Source of the DNA: an uncultured Gemmatimonadaceae bacterium
Lineage (GTDB): Bacteria > Gemmatimonadota > Gemmatimonadetes > Gemmatimonadales > Gemmatimonadaceae
DNA length: 64,000 bases
NCBI GenBank assembly: GCA_963829055.1
Contig: CAWHHI010000012.1
Location: 64,001-128,000, forward strand
Reading direction: 5' to 3'
Shown: positions 1,220-61,351 of the stretch, piece by piece
Position numbering within the stretch: the first letter of the stretch is position 1
How the letters are laid out: every line of letters starts with the position of its first letter
Notes under the pieces: model-generated
Seen by the model: the letters and a program-made list of their open reading frames with translations, nothing else
Told to the model about the DNA's origin: nothing
Databases searched by the model: none
Made by a program: the position numbers and the translations under genes

Positions 1220-1274
1220 CCGTTAGCTATCTCCTCGAATGCCCGGAGGCACCCGTTCGTTGATTCGTTAGGTG

Positions 1275-1373
1275 GTCATTCCGAGCGAAGTCAGGGAACC
1301 GACGTCGTCGCAGCTGGGGCAAACCCCTGCGGCCACAATCGCGGTTCCTCTCACTTCGCTGCCTCGGAAAGAC
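1275..1373. repeat. REP-like imperfect palindrome between susC and susD
   Basis: GTCATTCCGAGCGAAGTCAGGGAACCG ... CGGTTCCTCTCACTTCGCTGCCTCGGAAAGAC form a long imperfect stem. The same GTCATTCCGAGCG head occurs at ~7262. Confidence 0.7.
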
Positions 1374-1383
1374 AACGCGCTGC

Positions 1384-4300
1384 TCAGAAGCCGATGTCGA
1401 AGCTCAGGAAGAACGAACGGCTGGGCGGCCACGGTGCGAGGTCGACGAACCGCGCGACGACGTTGCCGCCGTTGTTCACTTCCGGATCGACGCCGTTGTA
1501 GCCCGAGATGATGAACAGGTTTCTGCCAGCGAGGTTGACACGCATGTTGTCGACGCCGCGGACCTTCGAGAGCATGTTGCGCGGAACGTCCCACGACAGG
1601 CTGACTTCACGGACCTTCGTGTAGGACCCGTCCATCAGGTACGCTGCCGTGTTCGCGCCACCGTTCCACAGGTCGTAGCGGTACTTCCCGAGGGGGACGC
1701 CGGCCTTTGGCGACGCGTCCTCGTAATCCCACGTGTTCTCGCCCTCGTCGTACAGGTTCAGCGTCATGTTCGAGAGCGTGCCGCCGTGGCGGTAGTCCAC
1801 GAGCACGTTGAGCGCGAACGCCTTGTACGTGAGGTCGTTGCCGAACTGCATCAGGTACTTCGGGTTCGCGTCGGCGAGCGGAATGTTGCCCACGCCGTCG
1901 ACAGCACCCCAGATCGTGCTGACGCGATTGCCGGAGGCAAAGCGCAGCCGCCCGTAGGCGTTACCGAAGCCACCGGTCGAGTTGATCGTAAACGGCAGCA
2001 CGCCTTCGCCCAGCGTCTTGATCTCCGCGTAGTTCTGCGTGTGCGACGCGCGCGACGTCCAGCTGAAGTTCTGGGTCTGCACGGGAACGATCGTGAGGCC
2101 GACCTCCGTTCCCTGCGACTCCATCTCGCCGCTGTTGTCTGATCGTCTGCGTGATGCCGCTGGACGGCGCGAGCACAGGCCTAACGAGCAGATCGGTGAT
2201 GTTGCGCCTGAAGTACGTCGCCTCGAAGCCGAATGCGCTCGTTCCACGCCGTGACGTCGGTGCCGAACTCCGTCTCGGCTTGCGTCTCAGGCTTGATGTT
2301 GGCGTTGCCGACCGTCGCCGCCTGGATGAAGGCGGGACGCCCGTCGATCAAGGCGGCGTTGGTGACGGTCAGGAACCGATCGCCGTAGTTCGGCTGGTTG
2401 CCCGACAGGCCGTACGCGCCGCGGAGCTTGATCTCGTTGATGAATGGGAGCGGGCTGACGAAGCGGTACGACGCCGCGCCGCGCGGGAACGTGTAGAACT
2501 TGCTCGATGTCACCGTTCACGCTCGAACGCTCGGCGCGGACGGCGCCCGAGACGTAGAGCTTCTCGCTGAACAGGAAGCCTTCGAGCTGTCCGAAGTACG
2601 ACTGGTTGCGAACGATCTGGCGGTTCTGCGTCGTCGCGGTGTTCGCGGCGCCGGAGGCGTTGAACTGCTGCGGCGCGAGACCACGGCCCTGAATGTTGTA
2701 GTCGTTGAGCGTACGATCCGTGTACTGGATGCCGCCCTGAGCCGTCGTGCGAAGCATCGAACCGAAGTTCCAATCGAACACGGCCGCCGTCTGGAAGCTC
2801 GTGTTCAGCTCAGTGCCGTTCCCCTGAATCGCAACGCCGGGGAACGCGCCGGCCTGGACGGAACCGGGAGTCTGGAACTGAAGCGAGGTCGGGGCATAGA
2901 CGTAGTTCTCGTTGGAGAAGCGGTCCACGCCACCGGACGCCGTGAACTGCAGCGCGCCCTTGTCACCGGTCCATGCCGAGTAGTTCAGCGCGGCCGCCGC
3001 CGATGATTCGGTACACGTCCTCGTTCGTGCGCATGAGGTCGAACGTCTGGAACGGGTTCGACGCCGCCTTCACGCCGCCGGGCGGGAACGGGTTGAACAG
3101 GTAATTCCCCTGCGAGTTCTTGGTTTGCAGGTTGAGCACGGCGGGCGTGTAGCCGAACGCGTAGAGCGGGCTCGAGAACGTGTTGTCGTTGTTCGAGACG
3201 CCACGCTGCGCGAAGGAGCGCAGCATGTTCGCGTTGAGGCCGACCGTGATCTTGCTGCCAATGTTCTGGTCGACGTTGGCGCGAAGCGACTGACGCCTGG
3301 CACCCGTCTGGTTCGCAGTGCCGGCCTCGACCTTGTGGAGGCCAGACACGAAGTAGCGCGTGTTCGACGCGCCGCCCGTGAGACTCGCGACCGCCTCGTA
3401 CGACGGCTTCGTCTCACCGAACATCTCCTTCTGGTAGTTGTAGTGCGGGCAGTTCGGCGTGCAGACGGAACGAGCGGCAGCCTGTGCATCGGGGTTACCC
3501 GACGTCGCGCCGACCGAGAGCAGCTCGTCGAGCGTCTCGAAGTTGCGCGAGTCCTGGAGGCGCATGGCCTGATACGTTCCACCACGCATCGTCAGGTTGA
3601 ACTTGGGCGACCCGGCCCTACCACGCTTCGTGGTGATGAGGACGACGCCGTTCGTCGCCTGCGACCCGTAGATCGCAGCCGCGGCGGTGCTCTTCAGCAC
3701 CTCGATCGACTCGATGTCGTTCGGGTTGATGTCGGCGAGCCGGTTCGTGCCGTTCTCCTCGCCGGAGTTGAGCGAGCCGGTCGCGACTGCCTGACGCGTG
3801 CTGCGAACGGAGTTCGAGACGACGACGCCGTCGACGACGAACAGCGGCTGCGTGTTGCCGATCAGCGAGCTCGCGCCGCGGATCTGCACCTGCGCACCGC
3901 CGCCCGGGGCGCCGTTGTTCATGTTGATGCTCGCGCCGACGACCTTGCCCTGCATGGCACTCTCGATCGACGTCGCAGGCGCGCGGGTGAGATCCTCGGC
4001 GCTGACCGAAGATACCGACGTCGCGGCGTTCTTCTTTTCGATCGTGGTCGCGGTGCCGGTGACCGTCACGCCTTCGAGTTGCAGCACGTCCTTCTCGAGT
4101 GCGAAGTCAGCGGTCGACTGGGTGGCTACCACACGCGCGCCGCCACGCTTGAAGCCGATCGCTCTGACGAGCAGCGTGACGTCCGTTTGCGGTACGCGGA
4201 TGCGATACTCACCGTTCGCATTCGTCCGAACGCCGGCAGGGGAGCCGACCACGCCGACCGTAGCGTCGGCGAGCGGTGTGTTCGAACCGGTTTGGACGAC

Positions 4301-4393
4301 TTTCCCGGTGATCTCTCGCGTCGCCTGGGCTCGGGCAATGCCCGGCACCATCAGCGTCGCGATGAGTGGTACGGCAGACAAGAATCTGCGCAC
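1384..4393 (-). CDS. SusC/RagA-family TonB-dependent receptor (several frameshifts)
   Basis: ORF fragments 2963-4393, 2287-2928, 2181-2513 and 1384-2247. Signal peptide, CarboxypepD-like domain, plug motif INPNDIESIEVLK..AAAIYGS..TNGVVLITTKRG, IKPETQAETEFG, C-terminal SFFLSFDIGF. Confidence 0.93.
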
Positions 4394-4455
4394 ATCTTCC
4401 TCCGTTTTCTCGGGTTGAGTGGGACTGGTGGACGAAATTTCCCATCTCGGCCCGG

Positions 4456-4484
4456 ATTCTCGCGGTCTGTCACCGAACTGTCAA
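4456..4484 (-). promoter_or_regulatory. Putative sigma70-type promoter of susC overlapped by an 11-bp-period CTGTCA direct repeat
   Basis: Minus strand TTGACA (4479-4484), 17-nt spacer, GAGAAT (4456-4461). CTGTCA at 4467-4472 and 4478-4483 on the plus strand. Confidence 0.5.
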
Positions 4485-4717
4485 GCTTCGCCCGGCATTT
4501 TGGGACGAAGCGCGAGAAACGAACGACATACGGGCGTGAAATCGCGCGCTCCCGCATGATCCGAGGTGGCAAACCGTCCGAATTGGTGACGAATCGTAGA
4601 CGGTCGCGGACGATGCTGCGCAACCGGGTTGTCGCCGTCGTGTGTCTTGACGCGCGGTGCGCCAGCGATAGGCTATCGGCTATTCGCACCACCGACCCGT
4701 TCGAGGGAGTCAACTCA

Positions 4718-7003
4718 ATGCGTCGCGCATACCGCAGGACGTCTCGCCCGATGACGGTTTTCGCCGTCGCCATCTGCTCCGCGTTCGCTGCACCCACTCG
4801 CGCGGTCGCGCAGACAGCGCCGCCTGCGTCGACGTTCTCGATCGACGATGCGCTCAATGTCGTCAGCTACTCGCAATCAGATCTGAGCGACGACGGACGC
4901 TGGCTCGCGACGGTGTCCGTGAGCCGTCGCGACGGCATCGGCGTCGATTACCGGCGTGATGGCGACCCGACCTACATCCGCCCAGCGGCGGGGATGGTGT
5001 GGGTCATCGAGACCGCGACGGGCAAGTCGCGCGCACTGTTCCCGGACAAGCGGAACGCGAAGAGTCTCGCCTGGTCCCCCGACGGTGCCCGGCTCGCGAT
5101 GCTCGTCCTGCACAACGACGCGTTCGAGCCCGTGATCTGGGAGCGCGCGACGGGACGCGCGACGACGGTGGCGACACCGCCGGGAACGTACGTGGCCGAG
5201 AATAGCGACGTGCGCTGGACGAGCGACGGCGCGTCGATCGTGTTCGCCCTGCACCGCGACGCGTGGAAGAAGTCGATCCATGAGCAGTTCGATCGATACA
5301 CGAAGGGACCGGTGTTCGTGCAGTCGAGCAGCGATCCGTTCCTGGCGTGGGATGATCTCCGGCGCTCCGCGAACAAGCGCTCGGTCGCGGCATACGATCT
5401 CGCGACCCGTCGCACGCGTGAGATCATCCCCGAAGGCATGATCGCCTCGTACACGCTGGTCACCGGCGACTCGGTCGTCGTGTACAGCGAGGACGTCACG
5501 ACCAAGACCGACTACGACGTCATCTTCGGCACCGAGAACCGGCTGATGGCGCGCACGCCCGGTGCGGCAGCGCCACGAACGGTGCTTCCCTCGCTCAAGT
5601 CCACGAACGTGGTGTGGACCGAAGACGGTCGGCGCTTCGCGTACGGAAAGGAAGGCCGCGTGTTCATTGGATCGCCGAAGGACAGTGGCGGTAGACAGAT
5701 CGCGGGTCCGGCGGCCGGCGCTCCGCGCGACACGAGCACGGCCGATACGTCGGCGGCGGCGCGGGAACGTCGCGCGCGCGAACGATTCACGCCGGTGCGA
5801 TTCAACAGCACAGGCGAGCTGCTGCTGCTGTCCAACCGACAGGGCCTGTGGGTCGCCGACGTCGCGACCGGCAACAAGGATCTCATGCTGGAGATCGCGC
5901 CGGACTCCTCGACGCAGGGTCCGCGCATGACGGCGATCGGCTGGAGCCCCGATAGCCGCTACGTCTATCTCACGTCAGCGTCGCGCACGAACTGGGAACG
6001 CGGCATCGCGCGGTTCGACCGCACGACGAAGCGCCTCGATGAGCTGGTGAAGGACGGGCGGATGTACTCGAACTTCCGCCTCTCGAAGAACGGCTCGGTC
6101 GCGATGGTCTCGATTGCGGACGGCAACCGACCGCCGGACATCTATGTGGGAGACGCGTCACTTGGCGGGATTCGCCGGATCACGGATGCCAATCCGTGGA
6201 TGCGCGAGCGGAAGATCGGTAGTACGGAGCTGCTCTCGTACCTCGACGCCGATGGGCATCAGAAGTACGGCGTCGTCTACTATCCCGCGAACTACACCAA
6301 GGGCCAGCGCTATCCCACGCTGTTCAACATCTACGAGGACTTCTTCGACGACGCGTTCGACGCGACGGCGAACGTGCTGACGGCCGCCGGCTACGTGGTG
6401 GTGAAGCCGTCGGTCGACTTCGACATCGGGTATCCCGGCGAGGCGTGGGTGAAGGGTGTCACATCGGCGGCGAACAAACTCATTGAGATGGGCGTGGCCG
6501 ATTCAGCGCGGCTCGGCGTGCATGGCACGAGCTACGGTGGCTACGCGACGAATCTGCTGATCACGCAGACGAATCGATTCAAGGCCGCCATCAACATCTC
6601 CGGCAAGGTCGATATCATCAGCTTCTACACGGACAGCCCGCGACTCGGCGTCCGCAATGTCCACGCGGCGGAGAAGAGCCAGGATCGGCTCGGCGCAACG
6701 CTCTGGCAGCAGCCGCAGAAGTACGTCGCGCATTCGGCGATCATGTTCGCGGATCGCATCACGACCCCGCTCCTGCTGATGACGGGCGACCAGGACTCGA
6801 ACGTTCCGGCGAACAACACGCGCGAGATGTACTACGCGCTGCGTCGCCTCGGGAAAACGGTGGAGTGGGTGAACTACATGAACAGCGGTCACGGCACGCC
6901 GGCGACGACGGTCGAAGATTTCACGGACTTCCACCGCCGCATGCTCGCGTGGTACCAGAAGTACCTGAAGGTCGAGCCGAAGAAGGTGGCGGAGGCGCGT
7001 TAG
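4718..7003 (+). CDS. S9 family (prolyl oligopeptidase / dipeptidyl-aminopeptidase-like) exported peptidase
   Basis: ATG 4718 after GAGGGAG; signal-peptide-like N-terminus; beta-propeller repeats (WSPDG); nucleophile GTSYGG, GDQDSNVP, C-terminal SGHG. The ORF-track extension to 3125 is antisense shadow of susC. Confidence 0.92.
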   Translation: MRRAYRRTSRPMTVFAVAICSAFAAPTRAVAQTAPPASTFSIDDALNVVSYSQSDLSDDGRWLATVSVSRRDGIGVDYRRDGDPTYIRPAAGMVWVIETATGKSRALFPDKRNAKSLAWSPDGARLAMLVLHNDAFEPVIWERATGRATTVATPPGTYVAENSDVRWTSDGASIVFALHRDAWKKSIHEQFDRYTKGPVFVQSSSDPFLAWDDLRRSANKRSVAAYDLATRRTREIIPEGMIASYTLVTGDSVVVYSEDVTTKTDYDVIFGTENRLMARTPGAAAPRTVLPSLKSTNVVWTEDGRRFAYGKEGRVFIGSPKDSGGRQIAGPAAGAPRDTSTADTSAAARERRARERFTPVRFNSTGELLLLSNRQGLWVADVATGNKDLMLEIAPDSSTQGPRMTAIGWSPDSRYVYLTSASRTNWERGIARFDRTTKRLDELVKDGRMYSNFRLSKNGSVAMVSIADGNRPPDIYVGDASLGGIRRITDANPWMRERKIGSTELLSYLDADGHQKYGVVYYPANYTKGQRYPTLFNIYEDFFDDAFDATANVLTAAGYVVVKPSVDFDIGYPGEAWVKGVTSAANKLIEMGVADSARLGVHGTSYGGYATNLLITQTNRFKAAINISGKVDIISFYTDSPRLGVRNVHAAEKSQDRLGATLWQQPQKYVAHSAIMFADRITTPLLLMTGDQDSNVPANNTREMYYALRRLGKTVEWVNYMNSGHGTPATTVEDFTDFHRRMLAWYQKYLKVEPKKVAEAR

Positions 7004-7040
7004 GTGTGACGCGATGATCGCGGATGCTTAGTGCTGGGTT

Positions 7041-7427: not shown

Positions 7428-7437
7428 CACTGTCTGG

Positions 7438-8709: not shown

Positions 8710-9504
8710 GTGGCCACGATTCATCCTCCACACGGGCGGGGCGACCCTGCCCCGCGGCTCGACGAGCTCGACCTCGAAGCGCATCTCACGGATCCTGCGC
8801 TGAAACAGCGCTTCGTGACGCCGATGTTCGACATCATCGCGCCACGTTACGATCGATTCACGCGCGTCTTCTCGTTCGGGATGGACCGTCGCTGGAAGGC
8901 CGAGCTCACGTCGTGGATGGCGACCGCCATCGGCCCGCGCGACCGCGTCCTGGACCTGGCCTGCGGAACGGGCGATCTCGCGTTCGCCGCGGGTGAGCGC
9001 GCCGTCGATGGCGACGTCCTCGGTGTGGACGCGTCGTCCGTGATGATCGACCTCGCCCGCCAGCGCGCCGAGAAGGATGCGCCCCGCCGGAACGTGCGGT
9101 TCGTCGTCGGCGACATCTCGACCCTCGACGTCCCGACCGCATCGATCGACGCCATCACGGCGGGCTACGCGCTCCGGAACGTTCCGGACTACGCTCGCGC
9201 CGTGGCGGAGATCGCGCGCGTGCTCAAACCCGGCGGCGTCGTGACGACGCTCGACTTCTACCGCCCCCAATCCGTGCTGTGGCGGCGCCTCTTCCTCTGG
9301 TACCTGTCCGTCGCCGGGAACTGGATCGGATGGCTGTGGCACCGCCAGCCGGTCGTGTACGGGTATATCGCGCCGTCGATCGACCACTTCGTGTCGTGGC
9401 AGCGGTTCTCGCGGACGCTCGCGGAGCACGGGCTTCGCGTCGAGTCGGTGCGGACGAAGCTGCTCGGCGGCGTGGCGATCCACATCGCCCGGCGCGCTGC
9501 CTAA
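8710..9504 (+). CDS. UbiE/MenG-family class I SAM methyltransferase
   Basis: MFDIIAPRYD...SFGMDRRWK, VLDLACGTGDLA, GYALRNVPD, RVLKPGG. Confidence 0.88.
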   Translation: MATIHPPHGRGDPAPRLDELDLEAHLTDPALKQRFVTPMFDIIAPRYDRFTRVFSFGMDRRWKAELTSWMATAIGPRDRVLDLACGTGDLAFAAGERAVDGDVLGVDASSVMIDLARQRAEKDAPRRNVRFVVGDISTLDVPTASIDAITAGYALRNVPDYARAVAEIARVLKPGGVVTTLDFYRPQSVLWRRLFLWYLSVAGNWIGWLWHRQPVVYGYIAPSIDHFVSWQRFSRTLAEHGLRVESVRTKLLGGVAIHIARRAA

Positions 9505-9520
9505 CGTCGTTCCGTAGCGC

Positions 9521-12500
9521 TCAGCAACCCATCCGGCTAGCGAGGCCGTGGAATCCGGATGCGATCGCCGCGTAACGCACCCGTTCCACGATGGCGTTGG
9601 CTGACGTCACGCCGACCGCTACGAGCGCCGGTGCACACTCCGCCACCAGCGTCGCGGTCGCGAACGCGTCGTTAGGTTCCGCTGCCTCGAGCGCGCGCTG
9701 GAAGCGATCCGCCGCGATTTCAGAATGACCGGCGAGAGAAGCAAGACGAATCGCCAATGCGTCCACACGCTCACGGCCCGTGAACCACGCCGACGCTGGC
9801 CCCGCGGTGACCATCTCGTCTGCACGTCGGAGGCGCGCTTCCGCAACGCCGATATCGCCTTGGTCCAGCGCGGCAAGTCCTGCGCTCGCGTGGGCTACGA
9901 TCTCGGTTGCTTCGTCGTCGAGCTCATTCGCGCGCGCCGCCGCGGCCTCGTATGCGGTGATCGCCTCATCCCACCGCCCGTCCTCGCGCGCGACGTGTCC
10001 CAGCGTCAGCAGCACGACGGCGCGCTTTGAATCATCGCGCACTGTCGTGAACAGCCGCAGGGCTTCCTCGAGTCGCTCACGTGCTTGACCGAGCACACCC
10101 GCTTTGAGGTCCAGCACACCGAGCGCGAAGGTCGCGATGGCGGCAAGGTCTGGCGCATGCGCCTGCCGCGCCGTGTCGAACGCCATCTCGAGCGTCTCAC
10201 GCGCCGCGCTCAGGCGACCTGCGTCCGCGTGTGCGTTGCCCGTAGCGAGCCAGCAGCGCGTCTGCCCGTGCTTGTCGCCGAGTCGCATGAACAGCGCGAG
10301 CGCCTCCCGATACCGGTCGAGCGTCTCCTCGAGGCGTTGCGCCGGGAGCGATGCGCCGAGCCGCAGCAGCGCGTCTGCATGGCCGCGCCTGTCGCCGCGC
10401 GTGGCGGACAACCGAACGGCGCGTCGGGCGGACCGCTCGGCTGCCTCGAGGTCGCCTAACGCGGCGTGCGCTTCGGCGATCATGACGTGCAGCGCGACGG
10501 CTTCTTCATCGATGTGTTCGGCCTCGGCTTCGACGAGCAGCATCGAGCACGCGTCGAGCGTTTGACGCACAGGTTGGCCGCGCCGCGCGCGCAGCCGTTC
10601 CCGAATACGGCGCACGGACAGTGCGCGCAACGTGTCGCTCTCGATTGCCAGATGATCGAGCGCCAGGTCGCAGAGGTCCTCCGCCTGTTCGAAGCGGCCT
10701 GCGAACTCGGCCACCTGAGCATGTTGGATGCGAGCGGCGGCGAGGTCGCTGGCCGACGGAGCATGTCGCTGCGCCACCGCGAGACACGCCGCCGCCTCGT
10801 CGTGGGCATGAACGCTGATCGCGCGTTCTGCCGCGAGCATCGCATAGCGATACGCTTCGCGATCGTCGCCGGCGACGTGGTAGTGACGCGCGATATCGGC
10901 AACGGCGGTCGGCGTCCTCATCTCGAGCGCACGCGCGATACGACGATGCAACTCCGGACGTACGCGATCCGGTATGACGATACGCGCGGCGTCAGCGAGC
11001 ACCGCATGCGCGAACTCGTACTCGCGCCCGTCGTGCCGCTCACCGCGAACGAGCACCGCCGCGGTCACACCCTCGTCGAGCGCACCGTCGATGTCCGCCG
11101 GCTCGCCGGCACCGGCGGCGACGAGGAGGCCGGCGTCGAACGAAGTCCCCAGCGACGCGGCGCACGCGATGATCGCCGCGGCTCGCGGAGACAACCGGGC
11201 GATGCGCCGGCTCACGAGTTGCGTGCACGCCGGCGGGAGCTGCATCTGATCCAGCGACCGCCACTCCCAGCGCGTGCCGGCATACCACACGCCTCCGTCG
11301 TCGATGAGCGCGCGTAGCACCTGCACGACGAGCAGCGGGTTCCCTTCCGTGTACCGATGAAGGAACGTCGGGAGCTCGGTGCCGATGTCACCCTGATGGA
11401 ACACGGTCTCGAGCCACCGCTTCAGCTCTTCTCGCGAAAAGCGGCGAAGACTGACCTGCGCGAACCCGCGTGAACGGGCGAGCCTCCGCCGGCGCTCGGC
11501 CACGTCACGCGCTTCCTCCGCGCGAATCGTCGCGCAGATCAGAATGCGTGCATCGCCAAGCTGGGCGACGACGAACTCGAGGGCGTCCCAGCTTGCCCGG
11601 TCCGCCCACTGCATGTCCTCGAGGACAACGGCAAGCGGCCGATTGGACGCGGCGGAGCGGAGGTATGCGACCAGTTCCTCGAGCAACGCGTACGGACTGG
11701 GTTCCCCTTCTCGCGATGGCTTGCCACGGCCTAACGCCGGAACGATCCGTGAGAGTGCAGGCCATTCCGTGGCAGCGACGAGACCTTCGTGGTGAATCGT
11801 GGCAACGACGTCGGCCCACGCCGCGAACGGCGCCTTCACGGCGGACTCCGTGTTGCGTCCGCCGACGATCAAACCAGCGCGCACGCGGACCTCGGGCTCG
11901 AGCTGTCGAAGGAGGGTGGACTTCCCCACCCCGGCCTCGCCGACGACCGCGACGAGGCGGCCGTCGCCGCGGAACGCCGCGTCGAGCCAGCTCACCAGCT
12001 TCCTCAACTCTTCGACGCGGCCGACGAAGCGGTCGAGATCCATTCGCGGCGTCGCAGGGCGCGGCTCGACGTCATCGGCGGACGCGATCCCACCGGCGCC
12101 GGCGCCTCGAGCGGCGAACAGCGCGCGATCTGCCGCGGCAATGAGCGCCTCCGCGCTGTCAGCGTTCGCCGGTGACGACGCGGCCCCGGCCGACACCGTA
12201 ATGGCCATCGTCGATTCCGGATCGTTGCGAACAGGCAAGCGCAGATGCGCGACCGCAGCCTGCAGCCGCACCGCAACCTCTCGCGCTACCGCGAGCGGGG
12301 CGCCGGGCAGGAGAATCGCGAACTCGTCACCGCCGTATCTCCCGACGACATCTCCACCGCGCAGACCATGCTGCAGCACGCGCGCGATCGCCCACAGCAC
12401 GTTGTCACCCTGCAGGTGCCCGTACGCCTCGTTCACTCGCGCGAGGTCATCGACGTCAATGAACAGGAGCGACACTGGCGCGGTTGCATTTCGGCGCCGA

Positions 12501-15507: not shown

Positions 15508-15641
15508 GATCGCGCCGGCCCTGTCCCCAACATGCACGACGATCACGCCGGCGAGCGTCCGACGGGCGTGAGAACGGTGTGCGAGCCGAGTGGTCGCGTT
15601 GTTAGGCAGCCAGCAAGCAGCCCCGGTCACCGTTCCCGCCC

Positions 15642-18317: not shown

Positions 18318-18528
18318 CGGTCGCACGCGTCCATTCGGCCGAGGGGTGCTCCCGACAATCGACCCGCGCCCCTAGCTTAGGCGTGACGGGCGCCTCGGCC
18401 GAGTCCCGACCTCCGGCGCCGTCGTCCGCCCGTTACTCAATCGTTTCGCCGGATCCTCCGTGACCACGCCTGCCCGCGCCCCGAACCTAACGCCGACCGA
18501 CGGTACCGCGACGGCGACCGACCGGCAC

Positions 18529-50502: not shown

Positions 50503-51986
50503 CTACGGTTTCTTGGTCGAATCAGGCGCCGGCGTCGGCGCTGCTGGCGCAGGCGTCGGTGCACCGGGCTGGCCGCCGGCAGCGGAACAGCCGACGGCGG
50601 CTGCTGCGCGGCTCGCGTCGAGTCGGCCACTGTGCGCAGACGCTGCGCGCGCTCGAGCGCGCGATCGATGCCCGCCGCGTTCACCTTGTAGTCGTACTTG
50701 CGTGTGCAGCGCGGCTTCGAGCGTCGGCTGCACCGGAACGAACTGCTCGTCCTTCGTGAGCAGACGATCCATGTAGTTGTCGACGCGCGCGGCGGCGAGC
50801 CGCTCGCGCTCGGCAACGGTCTTCGCGCTGTCGGCGAGTCGGTTCGGCGAGATGTTGAGTCCGGACCAGGTGTTCGCGACCATGCCGACGAACGCGCGAC
50901 GAATCTCGTTCGTCTCCGACGTGTCGAGCGTGATCTTCGCGCTGTCCGCCTGATGCAGGAACAGCTCGTTCCGGACGATCGCCTTCACGAACTCCGGCAG
51001 CAGCGGAGTCCGGCGCCTGCTGGATCTGCTGGCGAAGCTGCTGGGGGTTCGGGGAACGCCGTGATCCACTGCGCCGACCGCGCCGCGGTGAGGTCGCCCA
51101 GCGTCGACGTGGCGATGACCGTCTTGTCGTCCTTGTGCGCGTCCGGCGCGGAGGCGATCGCCTTCACGACGGCGGGCGCGTTAGGCTTGACCTGCACCTT
51201 CGCCTTCTCGGTCGAGCTTGGCGACGTACGTGCTCTCGCCGGTGCGCTGCGCGCCCTGGTTGTTCGCGGCCGCGAACTGATCCTTCACCTCGTCGTAGGT
51301 CGAGCGACGAATGATGTGGTAGCCGAACTGCGACCGGACGGGCTGCGAGATCTCGCCGGGCTTGAGCGCCGCGAGCGCGTTCGCCGAACTCCGGGACCAT
51401 CTGCTCCTTCGGGAACACGCCGAGATCGCCACCGGGGCCAGCGGCGCTCGGGCTGGTTGTACTTCGTCGCCATGTCGGCGAAGTTCGCCGACGTCAGCTG
51501 CGCGCGAACCGACTGCGCCTTCTTGAGGGCCGAGTCCGCGGCAGGGCTGTTGCCCGCGGGTGCGTTGAACAGAATGTGTCGAGCCGCGAGCAACTTGCCG
51601 CTCGCATACGCCGCCGCATTGCCAGCCGTGTCCGTCGATGCCCAGGTCTTGGCGCGATCACGTCGTACAACTTCTTGATGCGCGTGTTCGTGGTCGCGGG
51701 CCACATCGCCTCGTCGATCAGCTCCGGCTGATTGAGCGAGTCGTTATGCGCGGCGGCGCGGGCGAGGAGCTGATAGTTCACCCACATGTCCGCGACCGTC
51801 TGCGACGACGTCGCGACGAAGCGGGATCTTCGACGCGCCGAGCAGCTCGGCGAGTCGGGTGACGGAGAGCTCCTGTGAGCCGGCGCGCGCGGCGACGTCG
51901 ACGTGCGCAGTCATCGCCTCCTTGAAACCGTCGCACGCGACGAGTGGAGCGCAAACGGCGAGGGCGAGGACGAGAGGACGTTTCAT
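50503..51986 (-). CDS. Parvulin-type PPIase lipoprotein (PrsA/PpiD-like; frameshifted)
   Basis: Lipobox LVAC; ARHILF, FADMATKY, QMVPEF, VRSQFGYHIIRR. Confidence 0.8.
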
Positions 51987-52109: not shown

Positions 52110-55100
52110 TCACGCGACGGCCAAACCTCTGAGAGCACGGACGAGCCCGTCGAGGATGGCTGAACCGCCGACACGTGTCAGTTTGAGCGAAAGCGGGTGC
52201 GTGCGACGCACCTCGGCCTGGAACTGCACCTCGTGGAACGCGGCCGACAGCCCCTTCATCCGGGGAACAGCGGTGTCGCGAAAAGTAACACGGGCCTCGT
52301 CGCCGCGCACCAAGAGACCGTCGATCCCCAGCGCCCCGCCGACGACCCGCAGGGTGGCGGTGGCGAAGAACGCTTCGGCGGGCGGAGGAAGCGGCCCGAA
52401 ACGGTCGCGGACCTCGGCGCGGAGCTCCTCAATGGACTCCGGCGCGTCCAAGCGCGCTCAGCCGACGATAGACGTCGAGCTTGGCGTCCTGCGACGGGAT
52501 GAAATCGTCCGGCAGATAGGCCGGGAGGTCGAGCGACACGTCGGACGGCACGAGCTTCGGCCGGCCGCCGCCGTCCATGACGCGCCGCACCGTCTCCTCG
52601 AGCATGCGGAGGTACATGTCGAACCCAACCGCGTGCACGAAGCCCGACTGTTCCGGGCCCGAGCAGGTTGCCGGCCCCGCGGAGCTCGAGGTCCTTGAGC
52701 GCCACGCGGTAGCCGGAGCCGAGCTCGGTGTGGTGCTCGAGCACCTGCAGCCGGCGCTCGGCGTCGGCATCGATGGCGTCGGGAACCATCAGATAGCAGT
52801 ACGCACGGCGGTGCGACCGGCCGACGCGACCGCGCAGCTGGTACAGCTGCGCCAGACCGAACGTGTCGGCGCGGTTCACGAACATCGTGTTCGCGTTCGG
52901 CACGTCGAGGCCGGACTCGACGATCATCGTCGAGACGAGCACGTCGACGTCGCCGGCGACGAAGCGGTGCATGACGTCCTCGAGATCGCGCTCGCGCATC
53001 TGCCCGTGGCCCACGGCAACGCGGGCGCGCGGAACGATGCGGCGAATGCGGTCCGAGATCGCCTCGATGGTCTCGATGCGGTTGTGCACGAAGAACACCT
53101 GGCCGCCGCGATCGAGCTCGCGCGCGATGCCTTCCTCGATCAGCGCCTCGTCCCACGGCTCGACGAACGTGAGCACCGGCGAGCGGTCGCGCGGCGCGGT
53201 CTGCATGAGCGTCATGTCGCGCAGGCCGGCGAGCGACAGATGCAGCGTGCGCGGAATCGGGGTCGCGGTGAGCGTCAGCACGTCGGTCTCGAGCCGCAAG
53301 TTGCTTGAGCCGCTCCTTGTGCTTCACGCCGAAGCGATGCTCCTCGTCGATGACGATGAGGCCGAGGTTCGCGAACCTAACGTCGGGACTCAGCAGACGG
53401 TGGGTGCCGATGATGATGTCCACCTTCTTCGCGGCGAGCTCCGCCAGCGTGTCCGTCTGCTCCTTGGCCGACTGGAACCGGCTCAACGCGGCGACGCGAA
53501 TCGGGAAGTCGGCGAAGCGCTCGCTGAACGTCCGCTGATGCTGATCGGCGAGAATCGTCGTCGGGCACGAGAACGGCGACCTGGCGATCGGACTGCACGG
53601 CCTTGAATGCAGCGCGCACCGCGATCTCGGTCTTCCCATAGCCGACGTCGCCGACGAGCAGGCGATCCATGGGACGCGGCTTCTCCATGTCCCCTTGACG
53701 TCGACCGTGGCCTTCCGCTGATCGGGCGTGTCCTCGAAGAGGAACGAGGACTCGAGCTGGCGTTGCCACGCGCGTATCCGGAAAGTGCGGCGGGCGCGAT
53801 GCGACCTGTCGGCGCGCGTAGAGGTCGAGCAGCTCGACGGTCATCTCCTGAATGGCCGCGCGCGTGCGGTCGCGCTGCTGCGCCCAGCGTTTGCCGCCGA
53901 GCTTGTGCAGGCGCGGCGGCGCGGCGTCGCCGTCCGCATCGCCGGCGGCGCGGTAGCGCTCGATCTGGTCAATGCGGTACAGCGGCACGTTGAGCCGATC
54001 GCCGCCTTCGTACTCGATCACGGCGACTTCGACGGTGCTCTCGCCGACGAAGATCGTCTGCAGCCCGCGGTAGATCCCAACGCCGTGCTCGAGGTGGACG
54101 ACGAAGTCACCCGACTTGAGCGCGGTGATCGCCTCGAGGGTCGCACCGGTTGTGTAGCGCCGCGCGCGCCGAAGGCGTCGCTCTCGTCGGAAGATCTCGT
54201 GGTCGGTGAGGACACGAAGCCCCGATTGTCGGGAATCGGGAATCGGGAATCGGGAATCGACCTCGGCGACGGGTGGAATTACGAAACCGCCGTCCAGCAC
54301 GCCAATGACCAGTGCGGCTGGCGACGGAGCGAACGTGTCCTCGTTCAGCAGCTCATCGAGACGCTCGGCCTGACCTTCGTTGTCGCAGAGGATGATCGTC
54401 GGCATCCCGTCGCGGACGATGCGACGCAGCCGCTTGATGTCGCGATCGATCGCGTCCGGGTGACGAATCGGGAAGACCACGTCGGCGCCGGTGCCTGCGC
54501 CCGGCACAAGCGCGATCGTGCCGAATTCCGTGAGCGACCGCGAGCACGTCCGCCGGCGGCTGAAACAGCTCGTCGCGACGCGGCACGTCTTCGCCGCGTC
54601 GGCGCGCGAGGTCGAGGTGGTGCTGCGCCTCATCCCACGTGCGCTGAAGCTCTGGCTCGAGGTGCGCGTCGCCCGGAACGACGACGATCGTCTCCGGCGG
54701 CCACAGCGACGAAACGGAGACGCGCTCGAACTCTGCTTCCTCGTCGTCAGGAACGCCGCCGTCGACCGGGAGGATGATCGCGACGTCGGCTGCGCGGGTG
54801 GAGCGCTGGCTGTGCAGGTCGAAGTGGCGAAGCTCGACGATCTCGTCGCCCCAGAACTCGAGGCGCACCGGGTCGGCCATGCCGAAGCCGTAGATGTCGA
54901 AGATGCCGCCGCGCACCGAGAACTGCGCGACATCGTCGACCATCGGCACGCGCTCGAAGCCAACACGCTCGAGATGCTGCGGCGATCTCCTCGGGTCGCC
55001 TAACGTCGCCCTTGCGGATCTCGAGCCGCGCCCCGCGCAAGCGTCGTCGGCAGCCGCGTGCGCTCGAGCAGCGCGCGGGCCGTCGTGAGCAGGATGCGGA

Positions 55101-55448: not shown

Positions 55449-57316
55449 TACGCTGCCGCCTTGACCGCCGCTCGACTCGAGCGGTCGCCGCTGCCGCGCG
55501 CGATGATCGCCTCGGCGACGAGCACGAGCGCGGCGAGAATCAACAACGGAGTGGAGAGAGGTCGGCGCGCCGACCCGGTGTACGCGTCGTCGCGCCCAGC
55601 GCTCGCCGTCAGCGGTGACGCTCACGTCGCGACCATCGAAGCGCGCGCGGAACGTCGCCGCGGGCAGACGTGCGAGCGTTGACTCGTCGGGCTCGCTGTT
55701 CACGACGACGGCGCCAGCCTTCGCTCCAGCGCGTCGCAGGAAGTACACGCCCGCGCGGTCGGGCGCGATGATCTCGCCGCTCGCGATGGGCACCGCCTGA
55801 CCGGACGCGTCGTCGATGGTCTGCACGCCTGCCGGCGCACGAAGGCGTGCGCCTGGAGACGGCGAGCAGCAGTACGCCGGCATCACCCGCGAGCCGCTGC
55901 GATGCTGCCTCGGCGAGCCACGGAAGAAAGCCGGCGCGCACTGGAAGGTCCGTTGCCGCCGGATCGAGAGGCGATGCGATAATGACATACCGATCACCGC
56001 CGACAGCCCATGGCTCGGTGCCGACGCGCGCCAGCGTGTCCGCGGCGGCGTCGCCAATTGCGCGTCAGCGGATAGCGCATGGTGACGGTCGACGCCATCG
56101 AGCAGCTTCGACGTGACGCTCGCAGGCTCGCGGACAGTACCCGTCTCGCGCTTTGCCGCCCCGAATCGCCACGGCACATTCAATCGCTCGAGCGCGCGGT
56201 TCGCGGCGCCGACGCGCACCGGATCCGCTGGCGCGACGATCAGCGCGGGGAGCCGAGTCAGCGCGTCGGCGGGAGCAATCGCCGCGTCGGCGCCGAGTCG
56301 CAGACGATCGCTCTGTACGAGCGCGTCGACGGCCGTCCGAACGAACGGTCCGACGGTCGGCATCGACGGATACCGCCGGCGCCGCGCCGATCCACGCCGC
56401 GAAGTATCGCACGTCGTCGCCGCGAAGCTCGTCCGGCTCGAGCTCGACCGAGCCCGCGACCCACCCGCGCTCGGGCGGCGCAGCCCTAACGAGGATCTCC
56501 CCGTCCGCAACGGCGGTGCCACGCGCGAGCGTGCGAGCGGCGGTGCCGGTACCTCCGATGCCGATCCGATACGTCGCGGAGTCCGCGCCTAACGTGCGCG
56601 CCACCACACTGCCGCGCGGCGTCCAACGCGTCGGACGAGCCTCGGCCACGATGACCGCGTGGTTCGCTGGCAGTGCACCGGTCGGCACGAGTGCGCTGAC
56701 ACCAACGTCCACGACTGGCGGTCGCGCGACGCCACGAGGTCGCCTGACCGTCGGTCGCGACGGCGACATGACGCGCGGGCAGCCCTGCCCCGCGCACGAG
56801 ACCGACGGCGCGGGTCAGCGCCGCGGGGAGATCGCCGGCGCCGGCAATGGGCTCCAGTCGCTGAATGGCATCGGCGACAGCGGAGCTCGAACCGCCGACG
56901 ACGCGTCCATCGGCAGTGACGAGCCATACGCGATCAGACGGTGTTGCCTGACGCGCGGCGAGCAGCGCCGCGGCGCGGAGCCGCCGGAACAGCGGTGCAC
57001 CGTCGATGATCGTGGATGTGCTGAGCGAGTTGTCCAGCACGATCGCCAATGCCGTCGGCGCGTGACCCGACCCAATGAGTCGGCCAACCGGTCGCGCGGC
57101 GGCCAGCGCGATGAGCAGCACGGCGAGAATGCGCAGCAACATCAGCAGCCAGTTCTTCAGCTTGAGCTTTCGGCTGTTTTCTCTTTCGGCGCGCAGGATG
57201 TATCGGGCCGCCGGAAATTCCACGCGGAGCGAGATGCGGCGCCGCAGCAGGTGGAGCAGCAGCGGAACGGCGGCCGCGCCAGCGAGCAGCAGGTAGAGTG
57301 GCTCGAGAAAGCTCAC
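55448..57316 (-). CDS. BatA N-terminal-domain / VWA membrane protein (frameshifted)
   Basis: MSFLEPLYLLL..PLLLHLL, LLMLLR..ALAAARP, VLDNSLS, TDGQ, C-terminal VN..PDES and TM. Confidence 0.8.
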
Positions 57317-58410: not shown

Positions 58411-60214
58411 GTGAATCTCGACCACATCCGCAATTTCTGCATCGTCGCCCATATCGACCATGGGAAGTCGACGCTTGCCGACCGCCTGATCGAGACGACC
58501 GGCACGCTGCAGAAGCGGGAGATGAAGGCCCAGGTGCTCGACACGCTCGATCTCGAGCGTGAGCGCGGCATCACGATCAAGCTCAACGCCGTGCGCATGA
58601 ACTACACCGCGCAGGACGGCGGGCTGTACGAGCTGAATCTGATCGACACGCCAGGTCACGTCGACTTTACGTACGAGGTGTCGCGTTCGCTCGCGGCGTG
58701 CGAAGGCGCGATTCTCGTCGTCGACGCGTCGCAGGGCATTCAGGCGCAGACGCTGTCGAATCTGTTCCTCGCGCTCGACGCCGGGCTCGAGATCATTCCG
58801 GTCCTGAACAAGATCGATCTGCCGGGCGCCGAGCCGGAGCGTCGCAAGCAGGAAGTGCACGATCTGATCGGCGCCGATCCCGATCGCATCCTCCTCGTGA
58901 GCGCGAAGGAAGGACTCGGCGTTCCGGAGCTGCTCGAGGAGATCGTGGCGCGCGTGCCTCCGCCGACTGGCGATCCGAACGGTCCGCTGCGCGCGCTCAT
59001 CTTCGACTCGTACTACGACCGCTATCGCGGCGCCGTCCCGACCGTGCGCGTCGTCGACGGATCGATCAAGCGCGGCATGGAGATCACGTTCGGCGCGAAC
59101 GAAGCGAAGTACGAGGTGAGCGACATCGGCTACATGCAGCTGCGCCCGGTGCCGACCGACGAGCTCGGGCCGGGCGAAGTCGGGTACGTCGTCGCGAACG
59201 TGCGCAGCGTTGCGGAGACGCGCGCTGGCGACACGATCTTCGACGCCAGCAATCGCGCAACCGACCGCACTGCCCGGCTACCAGGACGTGCACTCGATGG
59301 TGTTCGCGGGCATGTACCCGTCGGACACGTCGGCAGTACGAGCAACTGCGCGACGCGCTGGCGAAGCTCAGGCTGAACGACGCCTCGCTGCAGTACGAGC
59401 CCGAGACGTCGACGGCGCTCGGCTTCGGCTTCCGCTGCGGGTTCCTCGGACTGCTGCACATGGAGATCGTGCAGGAGCGGCTCGAGCGCGAGTTCGACCT
59501 CGACCTCGTCACGACGGTGCCTAACGTCGAGTACCACGTGTACCAGGAAGACGGCACGATGGAGCTGATCGAGAACCCGTCGAAGATGCCGGCGCCGGGC
59601 ACGTACAACCGGGTCGAGGAGCCGTACGTCAAGGCGCGCATCATGGCGCCGTCCGACTACATCGGACCGATCATGACGTTAGGCAACGAGCGGCGCGGCG
59701 ATCTACAAGAACATGACGTACCTCGACCAGGCGCGCGTCGAGTTCGACTGGGAGTTCCCGCTCGCCGAGGTCATTCTCGACTTCTTCGACCGTCTGAAGA
59801 CGATCAGCCGCGGCTACGCCTCGCTCGACTACGAGATGCTCGGCTACCGCGCCGAGCGATCTCGTGAAGCTCGACATGCTGATCAACGGCGATCCGGTCG
59901 ACGCGTTCAGCGTGATCATCCACAAGGACAAGGCCTACGAGTACGGCCGCAAGATCGCCGACAAGCTCCGCGAGCTGATCCCGCGGCAGCTGTTCGAGGT
60001 CGCGATCCAGGCGGCGATCGGGAACAAGATCATCGCGCGATCGTCGGTGAAGGCGCTGCGGAAGGACGTGCTCGCGAAGTGCTACGGCGGCGACATCACG
60101 CGCAAGCGCAAGCTCCTCGAGAAGCAGAAAGAGGGCAAGAAGCGCATGAAGCAGGTCGGAGCGGTCGAGATTCCGCAGGAAGCATTTCTCGCGGTGCTGC
60201 AGGTCGACGACTAA
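58411..60214 (+). CDS. lepA: Translation elongation factor 4 (frameshifted)
   Basis: [69 protein letters not shown]. Confidence 0.97.
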
Positions 60215-60307
60215 CGGAGCCGTGTTCGAGATGTTGAGCGCAGGCGATCCTGGCGCCAGGGCCTGCTCGCCTGCCCTCGACATCGAAAGCAACCCACGAG
60301 CATCGTC

Positions 60308-61351
60308 GTGCAATTCTCGCTCGTCATCCAGACTTCGTTTCTCGGCGACGTCGTGCTCACGACGCCGCTGTTGGCCGAGTTGGCGACGCGTGGACCTGTG
60401 CATGTCGTCGCTACGCCGAGCGGTGCGCCGCTCCTCGCGAGAAACCCTGACGTCGCGAGCGTCACGATCTACGACAAGCGCGGCTCGGCACGCGGCGTCG
60501 GCGGGCTGGCGAATGTCGCGGCCGAACTGAGTCAGGCTCGCGCTCGTGCCATGACACGTGGGGCGACGGATGCCGTGGCGTACCTCGCCCAGGGTTCGGT
60601 GCGCAGCGCCGCACTCGCGCGACTCGCGGGGTTCAAGGGACGCGTCGGATTCACGACGTCCGCCGGCCGCTGGCTCTACACACGACGCGTGCCGTATCGC
60701 GACGATCGCCACCACGCGGAGCGACTCTGGAGCCTCGCGGCCGAGAGCCCCGAGGCAGCGCCAACGCGAGAGCAGTTGCGACCACGCTTGTTCCCAGGTG
60801 GCGCCGAACGCGAGACCGTCGACCGGTTGCTGGCGAGTAACGTGAGTGGCGACAAACCGCTGGTCGCGCTCGCGCCCGGCAGCGTCTGGGCAACAAAGCG
60901 GTGGCCGTTCTACCCCGAGCTCGCGCGCCTGCTCTCGCGACGCGCACGTCTTGTCGTGATCGGCGCGAAGGATGACGCGCCGATCGCTGCGGAGATCGCG
61001 GCCGCGGCGGATGGCGGCGTCATCGACGCGACGGGACAGCTGTCCTTGTTAGGCTCGGCGGAGATGATCCGTCGATGCACAGTGCTCGTGACGAACGACT
61101 CGGCACCACAACATCTCGCGTCCGCGATGGGAACACCGACGGTGACTGTATTCGGCCCGACGGTTCCAGAGTTCGGCTTCGGCCCGTTGGCTCCGCGCTC
61201 GGCCACTGCCGGCGTCGTGGGACTCGAGTGCCGCCCTTGCGACCGACACGGTCCGATGCAATGCCCGTTAGGCCACTGGCGATGCATGCGCGAGTTGGCC
61301 GCATCGGACATCGCCGCGATCGTCACGCGCGTCGAGTCAGGCACGTCATGA
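60308..61351 (+). CDS. Glycosyltransferase family 9 (LPS heptosyltransferase II-like)
   Basis: SFLGDVVLTTP, LAPGSVWATKRWP, TNDSAPQHLA, FGPT, CRPC..CPLGHWRCM. Confidence 0.9.
   Translation: MQFSLVIQTSFLGDVVLTTPLLAELATRGPVHVVATPSGAPLLARNPDVASVTIYDKRGSARGVGGLANVAAELSQARARAMTRGATDAVAYLAQGSVRSAALARLAGFKGRVGFTTSAGRWLYTRRVPYRDDRHHAERLWSLAAESPEAAPTREQLRPRLFPGGAERETVDRLLASNVSGDKPLVALAPGSVWATKRWPFYPELARLLSRRARLVVIGAKDDAPIAAEIAAAADGGVIDATGQLSLLGSAEMIRRCTVLVTNDSAPQHLASAMGTPTVTVFGPTVPEFGFGPLAPRSATAGVVGLECRPCDRHGPMQCPLGHWRCMRELAASDIAAIVTRVESGTS

Follow-up and report, generated by a model that had tools for sequence, protein, structure and literature searches.

The DNA analysed here, called the window below, is a stretch of 64,000 bases from an uncultured Gemmatimonadaceae bacterium (C12:64001-128000 of the source genome, G000), whose assembly comprises 7,784,024 bases in 20 contigs at 65-67.5% GC. 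Among its genes are a 16S rRNA gene (38893-40443, minus strand), a gene for a 1396-amino-acid GGDEF/HD protein, lepA and fragments of mfd, and in and between the genes lie copies of a short word, CCTAACG or its complement CGTTAGG (Table 1). Exact matching located 44 copies, 27 on the plus strand and 17 on the minus strand, and recovered the coordinate and strand of every copy that a first-pass annotation of the window had listed. In dinucleotide-preserving shuffles of the window (n = 100), the mean was 2.80 copies (standard deviation 1.78, largest value 11) and none of the 100 reached 44. The over-representation that had been noticed against a zero-order estimate of about 7 copies is thus borne out, at 44 observed versus 2.8 by shuffling. 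Six variants sharing the CCTAAC core were found where the annotation had placed them, five of them reading CCTAACA, and the 16S gene is indeed free of the motif. Through the motif, a TAG at 7001-7003 terminates the open reading frame (ORF) 3125..7003 and a TAA at 9502-9504 terminates ORF 8710..9504, both as annotated; by crude gene calls, a stop codon is supplied by eight of the 44 copies. The full 8-mer GCCTAACG accounts for 30 of the 44.

Genome-wide, the 7-mer occurs 6391 times (3154 + 3237), or once per 1.2 kb, and is found on every contig of G000 at 0.64-1.09 per kb. Because the whole genome holds 3154 copies on one strand and 3237 on the other, the 27:17 split of the window does not reflect a genome-wide strand bias. 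The observed count is 18-25-fold higher than the Markov expectations of 353 (order 1) and 249 (order 2). A maximal-order Markov model showed no excess of the 7-mer (3154 versus 3014), because its component 6-mers already hold the signal. The triplet TAA/TTA, described earlier as scarce in this DNA, proved to be rarer than any other trinucleotide, at 0.084 of what uniform use would give; of the 20483 TAA triplets, 6391 (31%) lie inside the motif.

The heptamer is real, but it is not the full word. G precedes 5004 of the 6391 copies (78%), which gives the 8-mer GCCTAACG, and A precedes another 13%. Base frequencies are flat past -3 and +5 relative to the TAA triplet; therefore the motif is a discrete word and not a piece of a longer repeat. 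As an empirical baseline we used 41 motif-poor loci of relatives (738 kb), in which GCCTAACG has a density of 4.1/Mb compared with 643/Mb in G000, a 158-fold enrichment. Judged by enrichment over this baseline, the six-base core CCTAAC is strict, position 1 of the 8-mer tolerates A (26-fold enriched) and C (41-fold), and position 8 tolerates A, the resulting GCCTAACA (10-fold) being the second most enriched variant at that position. Further variants were enriched 6.9-fold (GCATAACG) and 4-fold (GCCTGACG). GCCTAACG, built on the strict core CCTAAC, is a genuine signature word that part of the Gemmatimonadaceae carry at the level of DNA, and it acts as an 8-bp duplex readable in either orientation.

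Table 1. Copies of the word and its core variants in the 64,000-base window, with their 8-mer or variant spelling, position, strand and local context
Spelling	Position	Strand	Context
ACCTAACG	1266..1272	-	outside called genes
GCCTAACG	2180..2186	+	complement gives TAG stop of gene 2181-2513(-)
ACCTAACG	6998..7004	-	CGT-TAG stop of S9 peptidase ORF ending at 7003
GCCTAACG	9500..9506	+	xCC-TAA stop of UbiE-type methyltransferase gene 8710-9504
ACCTAACG	9670..9676	-	CCT-AAC-G (Pro-Asn), 1396-aa GGDEF/HD gene; kept in 5/6 species
GCCTAACG	10455..10461	+	xCG-TTA-GGx, 1396-aa GGDEF/HD gene; G000-specific, orthologues CGCTCGG/CGCTGGG
GCCTAACG	11730..11736	+	xCG-TTA-GGx; kept in 6/6 species
GCCTAACG	12947..12953	+	xxC-GTT-AGG (Val-Arg); in 5/6 species, synonymous CGTCAGG in the sixth
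GCCTAACG	13700..13706	-	xxC-CTA-ACG (Leu-Thr); G000-specific
CCCTAACG	14507..14513	+	outside called genes
CCCTAACG	15026..15032	-	outside called genes
GCCTAACG	15999..16005	-	CCT-AAC-G, gene fragment 15913-16224(-)
ACCTAACG	16124..16130	+	xCG-TTA-GGx, gene fragment 15913-16224(-)
ACCTAACG	18486..18492	+	outside called genes
ACCTAACG	19460..19466	-	outside called genes
GCCTAACG	22126..22132	-	GCG-TTA-GGC, EAL-domain gene 21756-22292(+)
GCCTAACG	22511..22517	+	complement gives TAG stop of 22512-23621(-)
GCCTAACG	22896..22902	-	xxC-CTA-ACG, gene 22512-23621(-)
GCCTAACG	23913..23919	+	xCG-TTA-GGx, molybdopterin-dehydrogenase fragment
GCCTAACG	24331..24337	+	xCG-TTA-GGx, molybdopterin-dehydrogenase fragment
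ACCTAACG	24677..24683	+	xCG-TTA-GGx, gene 24541-25308(-)
GCCTAACG	25233..25239	-	CCT-AAC-G, gene 24541-25308(-)
CCCTAACG	27771..27777	-	xxC-GTT-AGG, gene 27442-28452(+)
GCCTAACG	28903..28909	+	outside called genes
GCCTAACG	32793..32799	+	CCT-AAC-G, kinase/RCC1 gene 31869-34400(+)
GCCTAACG	33581..33587	+	GGC-CTA-ACG, kinase/RCC1 gene 31869-34400(+)
GCCTAACG	34638..34644	+	outside called genes
GCCTAACG	35633..35639	-	xxC-GTT-AGG, Big_2 gene
ACCTAACG	36178..36184	+	xCC-TAA stop of 35568-36182(+)
GCCTAACG	36603..36609	-	outside called genes
GCCTAACG	36757..36763	+	outside called genes
GCCTAACG	38234..38240	+	650 bases from the 16S gene, not inside it
CCCTAACG	40719..40725	+	276 bases beyond the 16S gene
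GCCTAACG	42699..42705	+	outside called genes
GCCTAACG	47929..47935	-	xCG-TTA-GGx, gene 47829-48170(+)
GCCTAACG	48969..48975	+	outside called genes
GCCTAACG	51179..51185	-	xCC-TAA stop of 51181-51432(-)
ACCTAACG	53376..53382	+	complement gives TAG stop of Mfd fragment 53377-54507(-)
GCCTAACG	54999..55005	+	xCC-TAA stop of 54491-55003(+)
CCCTAACG	56485..56491	+	outside called genes
GCCTAACG	56588..56594	+	outside called genes
GCCTAACG	59520..59526	+	CCT-AAC-G in lepA; motif-poor relatives CCG-AAC-G at this column
GCCTAACG	59677..59683	-	ACG-TTA-GGC in lepA; motif-poor relatives ACG-CTC-GGC, one with intermediate CTA
GCCTAACG	61266..61272	-	xCG-TTA-GGx, heptosyltransferase gene 60308-61351(+)
CCTAACA	14424..14430	-	spelling of the R' side of f2 attC sites
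CCTAACA	15600..15606	-
CCTAACA	27125..27131	+
CCTAACT	34009..34015	-
CCTAACA	38802..38808	+
CCTAACA	61047..61053	-

A word of this kind could in principle be a long-read base-calling artefact or a by-product of base or codon composition, and the window assembly does hold single-base insertion errors: contigs of 2-4 independent metagenome studies agree on lacking one base at 16269, 20340, 20407, 23952, 23988, 25358 and 25491. These errors explain the split genes of the window (a molybdopterin dehydrogenase at 23624-25308, and the lepA, mfd and typA fragments) and the completeness of 86%. The motif does not come from them, because genomes assembled from short reads carry it as well and because its stop-frame copies end true genes. 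Six other species of the genus, whose contig numbers (260-1170 each) point to short-read assemblies, hold 3403-6707 copies, and motif-rich lepA loci were recovered in megahit and SPAdes assemblies from many projects. Within called genes, copies in the frames xCC-TAA and CGT-TAG are confined to the terminal stop of the gene, and the 50 codons that follow 358 such motif stops look no more coding than those behind other stops (mean score -17.9 versus -16.9 to -20.3). Contigs from four runs of four studies cover all 30 bins of window positions 9000-28999, and none of the 40 listed substitutions (973 more lie beyond these) fell inside the 21 motif copies of that interval, which is weak support. Composition fares no better as an explanation, since motif-rich genomes span 62-75% GC and neither synonymous nor dinucleotide shuffles approach the observed count. 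The base-calling artefact that the first-pass annotation had allowed for is therefore contradicted, and we consider the artefact reading effectively excluded.

We then quantified how far the excess depends on proteins and codon usage. The interiors of 5028 confidently called genes (5.06 Mb) contain 3707 copies. Permuting synonymous codons within each gene, which keeps both protein and codon usage, left 278 copies (10 shuffles; largest 213 + 99), so a 13-fold excess remains under this codon-preserving control. Shuffling codon order in the gene interiors gave 163 copies. A first-order codon (dicodon) Markov simulation gave 2308 from dicodon counts that already include the motif; even so, the ratio near 1 that had been named as the outcome speaking against the motif was not seen (2308 versus 3707). 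The word leaves a strong mark on spelling. Pro-Asn-(A/D/E/G/V) is written CCT-AAC-G at 1074 of 1743 sites (62%) and (S/P/T/A)-Leu-Gly is written nCG-TTA-GGn at 1475 of 5186 sites (28%), while CCT makes up 8% of proline codons and TTA 1.6% of leucine codons; 58% of all TTA codons lie inside the motif. Among stop codons, 311 of 915 TAA and 245 of 1928 TAG are motif copies. Codon typicality showed only a weak trend with motif density (0.59 to 0.85 per kb), which is partly circular because the motif itself uses rare codons.

Comparison of orthologues indicated how the copies arise. The GGDEF/HD gene, aligned across six species (69-89% amino acid identity), has eight motif columns, one of them shared by all six species and two others by five. 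Species lacking the motif at these columns mostly carry synonymous spellings: CGCTCGG (Ala-Leu-Gly), CCGAACG (Pro-Asn-Asp) or CGTCAGG (Leu-Val-Arg). In lepA from 21 family members, motif-poor genomes read GCG-CTC-GGC, CCG-AAC-G and ACG-CTC-GGC at the positions where rich ones read GCG-TTA-GGC, CCT-AAC-G and ACG-TTA-GGC, and one genome shows a CTA intermediate. A few of the gains in lepA are conservative replacements (Ala -> Gly, Lys -> Arg). The CTC/TTA and CCG/CCT swaps in both genes are the synonymous gains at orthologous positions that the annotation had anticipated, and together with the 13-fold excess over the synonymous shuffle they uphold its proposal that the motif is maintained at the DNA level through rare codons. 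The word was installed mainly through codon changes that are synonymous or conservative, and it has since persisted for long.

The survey of the word's distribution covered 201 species genomes of Gemmatimonadaceae, drawn from 77 genera; the panel tallies include the unpublished genomes G013, G051, G052, G150, G255 and G282, on none of which the named examples rest. Counts of GCCTAACG per genome form a continuum from 2 to 7821 copies, and density across the genera runs from near zero to 1.5 per kb. The source genus has 2861-5004 copies per genome, a second genus 4115-6360, and densities in other rich genera go up to 600-1300 per Mb; in many genera the count stays below 30, and the loci of Gemmatimonas aurantiaca and Gemmatimonas sp. 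hold 0 and 1. The contrast can be sharp within a genus, as in G124, with 66 copies against 3479-4141 in its three congeners. Outside the family, the 119 panel genomes of the phylum's other families (of 151 searched) contain almost no copies, the sole mild excess being 726 copies in G323 versus a control of 293. A dialect marks one of the 77 genera, with GCCAAACG occurring 925 times in G010 (control 110) beside 605 copies of GCCTAACG. This dialect was seen in no other of the 201 family genomes, and a search of the poor relatives for alternative hyper-abundant words found none besides it (G010/L089). Two candidate words from that search, at L079 and L102, turned out to be tandem arrays in other Gemmatimonadaceae: a 7-mer, GGCCAAA, at L079:11799-11861, and an 8-mer, GGTGGACN, at L102:14581-14619 and 19017-19055. 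The annotation had known of no description of the motif for this lineage, and the literature library searched, limited in scope, likewise yielded no description of the word, of Gemmatimonadota uptake sequences or of a genome-wide integron core. The word serves as a sharp marker for binning, for detecting chimeric contigs and for assigning phages to these hosts, and the density gradient from about 0 to 1.5/kb over 77 genera, with its sharp within-genus contrast, offers a comparative route to the recogniser.

Copies show no preferred orientation. The strand z-score, computed in 137 windows of 50 kb, had a variance of 1.10 and a correlation of -0.17 with GC skew; within genes, 2268 copies are sense and 2336 antisense. 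A dif-like site, TATACTTATAATATGTATTATGTAAACT at C16:560791-560818, is single in the genome, lies at a GC-skew switch and marks the replication terminus, and no flip of polarity occurs there (159/201 on one side, 234/230 on the other). Orientations were also mixed in the fetched DNA of seven other rich genomes. An apparent strand polarity in G065, G165, G123 and G179, with runs of 19 plus copies, was an effect of how matches had been listed; the fetched DNA was mixed.

Spacing is more even than chance. Against a null that keeps the copy count of every 10-kb bin, gaps below 100 bp numbered 149 where 505 were expected, and the ratios to the null were 0.56 at 100-200 bp, 1.24 at 400-1600 bp and 0.79 at 3.2-6.4 kb. 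Inverted pairs of copies seldom lie close together (85 and 90 of the 6371 gaps are such pairs under 200 bp). Called genes carry 0.78 copies per kb and the remaining DNA 0.93, a similar density. Motif density levels off at roughly one copy per kb, and the even spacing together with the similar genic and non-genic density suggests that it is capped by spacing rather than by the number of sites free to change. A role as promoter or operator finds no footing in G000, where no cluster exceeded five copies and the copies did not peak at any position upstream of gene starts.

Phage DNA carries the word too. We scanned IMG/VR for two co-oriented copies 270-300 bp apart, which returned more than 118 loci; the presence of two such copies per phage contig is owed to this design. 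Six GC-rich contigs encode phage proteins (large or small terminase, and in several cases portal, head protease and major capsid protein) and carry 9-30 copies each, or 0.5-2.5 per kb: L173 (12 copies in 12 kb), L204 (9 in 7.6 kb), L234 (30 in 12 kb), L186 (12 in 14 kb, also encoding an integrase), L223 (10 in 18 kb) and L190 (9 in 19 kb). Mapped on called genes, the copies in L234, L173, L204 and L190 use the same codon spellings as the chromosomal copies and none makes an internal stop. No relatives of the L173 terminase were found in the 201 family genomes at E<=1e-20, and G000 yielded neither a related terminase nor homologues of the phage structural proteins. A viral scan for convergent pairs returned 40 loci, none of them motif-rich. 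Among the contigs filed as viral in IMG/VR, L195 (8868-13682), L196, L183 and L214 have 10-13 same-strand copies at the ends of small genes and look like integron cassette arrays.

Integrons provide a second setting for the same letters. Motif-poor genomes of the sister family have only a few copies, lined up in runs on one strand at intervals of 500-650 bp, and each copy of such a run opens an imperfect inverted repeat of 94-107 nt, GCCTAACG...TGTTAGGC, folding at -21 to -35 kcal/mol. Integron integrase genes (intI) adjoin the runs in G265, G268 and G021, and the hairpins with their neighbouring integrase identify the runs as integron cassette arrays and the word as the R box of their attC sites. 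These chromosomal arrays (L013, L014 and L015 of G021, G265:C23 and G268:C109) have very uniform attC sites of ~95-105 nt, and they sit past the 3' end of intI on the opposite strand, not at its 5' end. In Gemmatimonadaceae, hairpins near intI read GCCTAACG...CGTTAGGC in G066 and G179, RYYYAACG...CGTTRRRY in G057 and GCCTAACG...GGTTAGGC in G016; besides those near intI in these four genomes, true arrays were seen only in G021, G265 and G268. In PMC12901181, the attC consensus is RYYYAAC for R'' and GTTRRRY for R', and GCCTAAC is the R'' of a class 1 cassette. By comparison of the sequences, the dispersed 8-mer firmly matches the attC sites of its own family letter for letter over the R box and one further base pair, and its preferences fit attC too, with a purine favoured at position 1 and, at position 8, G ahead of A. 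This unexpected identity is a new observation that the first-pass annotation had missed, and it bears on how cassettes and attC sites arise and on how integrons couple to transformation.

The dispersed copies nevertheless differ from attC sites. They are single duplex half-sites in ordinary genes, without L box, hairpin partner or array, they are not adjacent to intI, and their abundance does not go with the presence of IntI. An integron integrase above the curated cut-off occurs in 114 of the 201 family genomes, poor and rich alike. In G000 it is encoded at C20:208008-208985 (L149:5008-5985), with the IntI-specific extra domain and atypical codon usage. No cassette array lies beside this gene, the 11 flanking copies show no attC fold, and attC-like hairpins number only 17 in the whole of G000, scattered. 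The copies flanking the gene share an orientation on each side and switch it at the gene: 12 of 14 agree on the one flank, and 11 consecutive copies on the other. The idea that the word is a Xer half-site was rejected: the genome's one dif-like site carries TTATGTAAACT as its arm instead of the motif.

To our knowledge, genome-wide self-DNA words are firmly known from two bacterial families only, as the uptake signal sequences (USS) of Pasteurellaceae and the DNA uptake sequences (DUS) of Neisseriaceae. HIP1 (GCGATCGC) of cyanobacteria, an 8-mer found about once per kb, within genes, patchy among lineages and of unsettled function, is a third and unexplained case. The Gemmatimonadaceae word adds a further case, in a mostly uncultured soil family, and by analogy we favor an uptake-sequence-like self-DNA tag as its best reading, with a probability of roughly 0.4. 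The features shared with this class are a density of about one per kb far above expectation, both orientations, even spacing, restriction to a clade with a dialect, and the presence of competence genes. If the uptake tag is true, the word would be the first evidence for sequence-specific transformation in Gemmatimonadota. In such a system, a protein of a DNA-acquisition route would prefer fragments bearing the word, and word-bearing alleles would be re-acquired and recombined more often than word-free alleles. This transmission bias (molecular drive) would spread the word through the core genome and resident temperate phages, and the spread would continue until most kb-sized fragments hold one copy. 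In the least supported step, the recogniser would share its specificity with the integron integrase or be tuned to cassette DNA, a link suggested by the word being the R box of the family's attC sites.

Several observations weigh against an uptake tag. We know of no uptake experiment or report of natural transformability in any Gemmatimonadaceae. Competence genes are also present in both motif-poor genomes compared below and so do not discriminate; the word has only 7-8 bp, where USS and DUS have 9-12 bp; and G124 is poor (66 copies) in a rich genus, with no gene found that tracks the contrast. The phage contig L234, at 2.5/kb, is denser than any host seen, and several phage contigs have co-oriented copies, which the uptake model does not predict. 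Finally, the R-box identity has no necessary place in that model and may reflect another mechanism.

The closest likeness is to USS, and among the analogies that the first-pass annotation had offered the USS/DUS type fits best, while a Chi- or KOPS-like signal is excluded and a drive by methyltransferase and repair finds no support. As described in PMC6776037, USS of Pasteurellaceae resemble the present word in density (0.7-0.8/kb, saturating near 750/Mb), in lying in both orientations without replichore bias and with even spacing, in tolerated gene frames, in their imprint on peptide usage, in clade dialects, in accumulation in resident phages and in scarcity in foreign DNA. The same source reports that temperate Pasteurellaceae phages build up USS to the host level of ~750/Mb and that large, probably lytic phages do not; the phage result thus fits the uptake model. 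By contrast, USS have a 9-bp core with AT-rich flanking segments, whereas our word has 7-8 bp with flat flanks, is missing from neighbouring genera and one congener, and coincides with an integron box. DUS of Neisseriaceae, read by the receptor ComP, are likewise lineage-specific words of self DNA that recur about once per kb and have dialects (PMC3630211, PMC3868556), but have 10-12 bp and often form inverted pairs in terminators, whereas close inverted pairs are rare here.

The competing explanations were weighed against the same data, with all gene comparisons except that of Vsr made in five genomes, three rich (G000, G014, G066) and two poor (G124, G016). Starting from the integron, the copies may be isolated R boxes read by IntI or a related tyrosine recombinase, as attG-like sites, as raw material of attC sites and cassettes, or for integrase titration or guidance. 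The 8/8 identity with the ends of the family's attC sites speaks for this, and it is joined by GCCTAACA being the R' spelling in sister-family attC sites, by the position-1 purine (G 78%, A 13%) that fits the R of RYYYAAC, by the frequency of the integrase, G000 with its IntI-specific domain included, by the co-oriented copies beside it, and by the shortage of close pairs, which could reflect selection against recombination-prone pairs. We still regard it as unlikely. IntI is present in the poor G007, G008, G009, G011, G016 and G124, and the rich G002, G004, G099, G147, G065, G123, G198, G109 and G117 show only Xer-level hits, an argument weakened by the chance that draft genomes miss integrons. 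The lack of L boxes and hairpin partners, the 17 hairpins genome-wide and the absence of an array beside the G000 intI also count against it, as does the GCCAAAC of the G010 dialect, which misfits RYYYAAC. Moreover, thousands of active recombination sites within genes should be harmful, and no known integrase activity turns neighbouring sequence into its own site. It is similarly doubtful that a single recognition system underlies both the genome-wide tag and the integron recombination box. In one version, an uptake route tuned to the attC R box would fish cassettes from DNA in the environment, and the spread of the box through the entire chromosome and into phages would be a by-product; in another, an integrase-type recombinase would read thousands of chromosomal R boxes, and new attC sites and cassettes would be born there. 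Were it true, it would join natural transformation, integrons and genome-wide sequence drive in an undescribed way.

Somewhat less credible than an integron origin is a binding site for an abundant chromosome-organising or DNA-maintenance protein, kept by selection at about every kb. Even spacing with repelled close pairs, indifference to orientation and equal density in and between genes agree with it, and phages could profit from the same host factor. On the other hand, known nucleoid-protein sites are generally far below 158-fold enrichment and do not recode 62% of the tripeptides, the word has no clusters and no preferred place relative to gene starts, and close relatives live without it. 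More improbable again is a HIP1-like process, in which a methyltransferase with mismatch or short-patch repair would convert near-matches in any DNA replicating in the cell. The word does recall cyanobacterial HIP1 in how strongly it is enriched, in its use of synonymous sites and in its patchiness among clades, as well as in its 8-mer length, its density of about one per kb and its genic location; phage DNA is affected too, and CCTAAC has an A at position 5, as do the sites of BREX-type methylases. However, HIP1 is a palindrome tied to cognate methylases, whereas CCTAACG and CGTTAGG are distinct, and no methylase family is restricted to the three rich genomes among the five. C5 methylase was found only in the poor G124, N6_N4 methylase was not found in G000 or G066, N6_Mtase was not found in G000, and a Dam-like methylase occurs in G000, G066 and G124, rich and poor alike. 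An Eco57I-family (type IIG/BREX-like) methylase-domain protein of 1024-1137 amino acids is encoded in four of the five genomes, again both rich and poor (G014:C73, G016:C23, G124:C24 and G066:C2), and G000 has only a 351-amino-acid fragment (C8:75362-75748). Vsr occurs in 36 of the 201 family genomes but in none of five in the source genus (g1) and none of five in the richest genus (g9). Independent conversion site by site also does not predict the shortage of close pairs. A polar signal for a helicase-nuclease or FtsK, like Chi or the FtsK-orienting polar sequences (KOPS), is very improbable. Such signals are likewise short, asymmetric and over-represented, FtsK is present and some genomes have AddAB-like genes, but the strand bias relative to origin and terminus that such a signal implies is absent even around dif, RecC was found in none of the five genomes, and the AddAB-like pair, present in G000 and in the poor G124 and G016, is missing from the rich G014 and G066. 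These comparisons remove Chi-like and Vsr-type explanations and leave a methylase drive without support. ComEC, a ComEA-like protein, a secretin and DprA were found in all five genomes, including both poor ones, and therefore explain nothing of the contrast between rich and poor. Of the methyltransferase and ComEA-like genes that the annotation had suggested might co-occur with the enrichment, representatives are thus present, but none tracks density among the five genomes.

Motif deserts on the 20-kb scale are confined in G000 to C6:0-50 kb, C6:600-620 kb and C11:0-40 kb, at or near contig ends. The loci covering them are L137-L139 (C6:1-55000), L142 (C6:598001-618000) and L140-L141 (C11:1-40000). 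They encode housekeeping genes, and the desert at C6:0-55 kb has 70-72% GC. The FtsK, DAHP synthase and leucyl aminopeptidase (PepA) genes of this desert have second copies on C16 at 47-54% identity, and such duplicated housekeeping genes indicate that the deserts are foreign or chimeric; they are probably chimeric joins or contaminant or foreign DNA.

Two further features of the window deserve mention. No 23S or 5S rRNA gene scored above the Rfam threshold within the 64 kb, so the 16S gene stands alone and the rRNA genes appear to be unlinked. In addition, about 30 bases at window positions 7400-7433 recur more than 40 times in G000 at 91-100% identity, often in inverted pairs 300-420 bp apart (e.g. 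C20:555036/555454 and C3:212524/212897), and this repeat looks like a family of miniature inverted-repeat transposable elements with terminal inverted repeats of ~28-34 bp.

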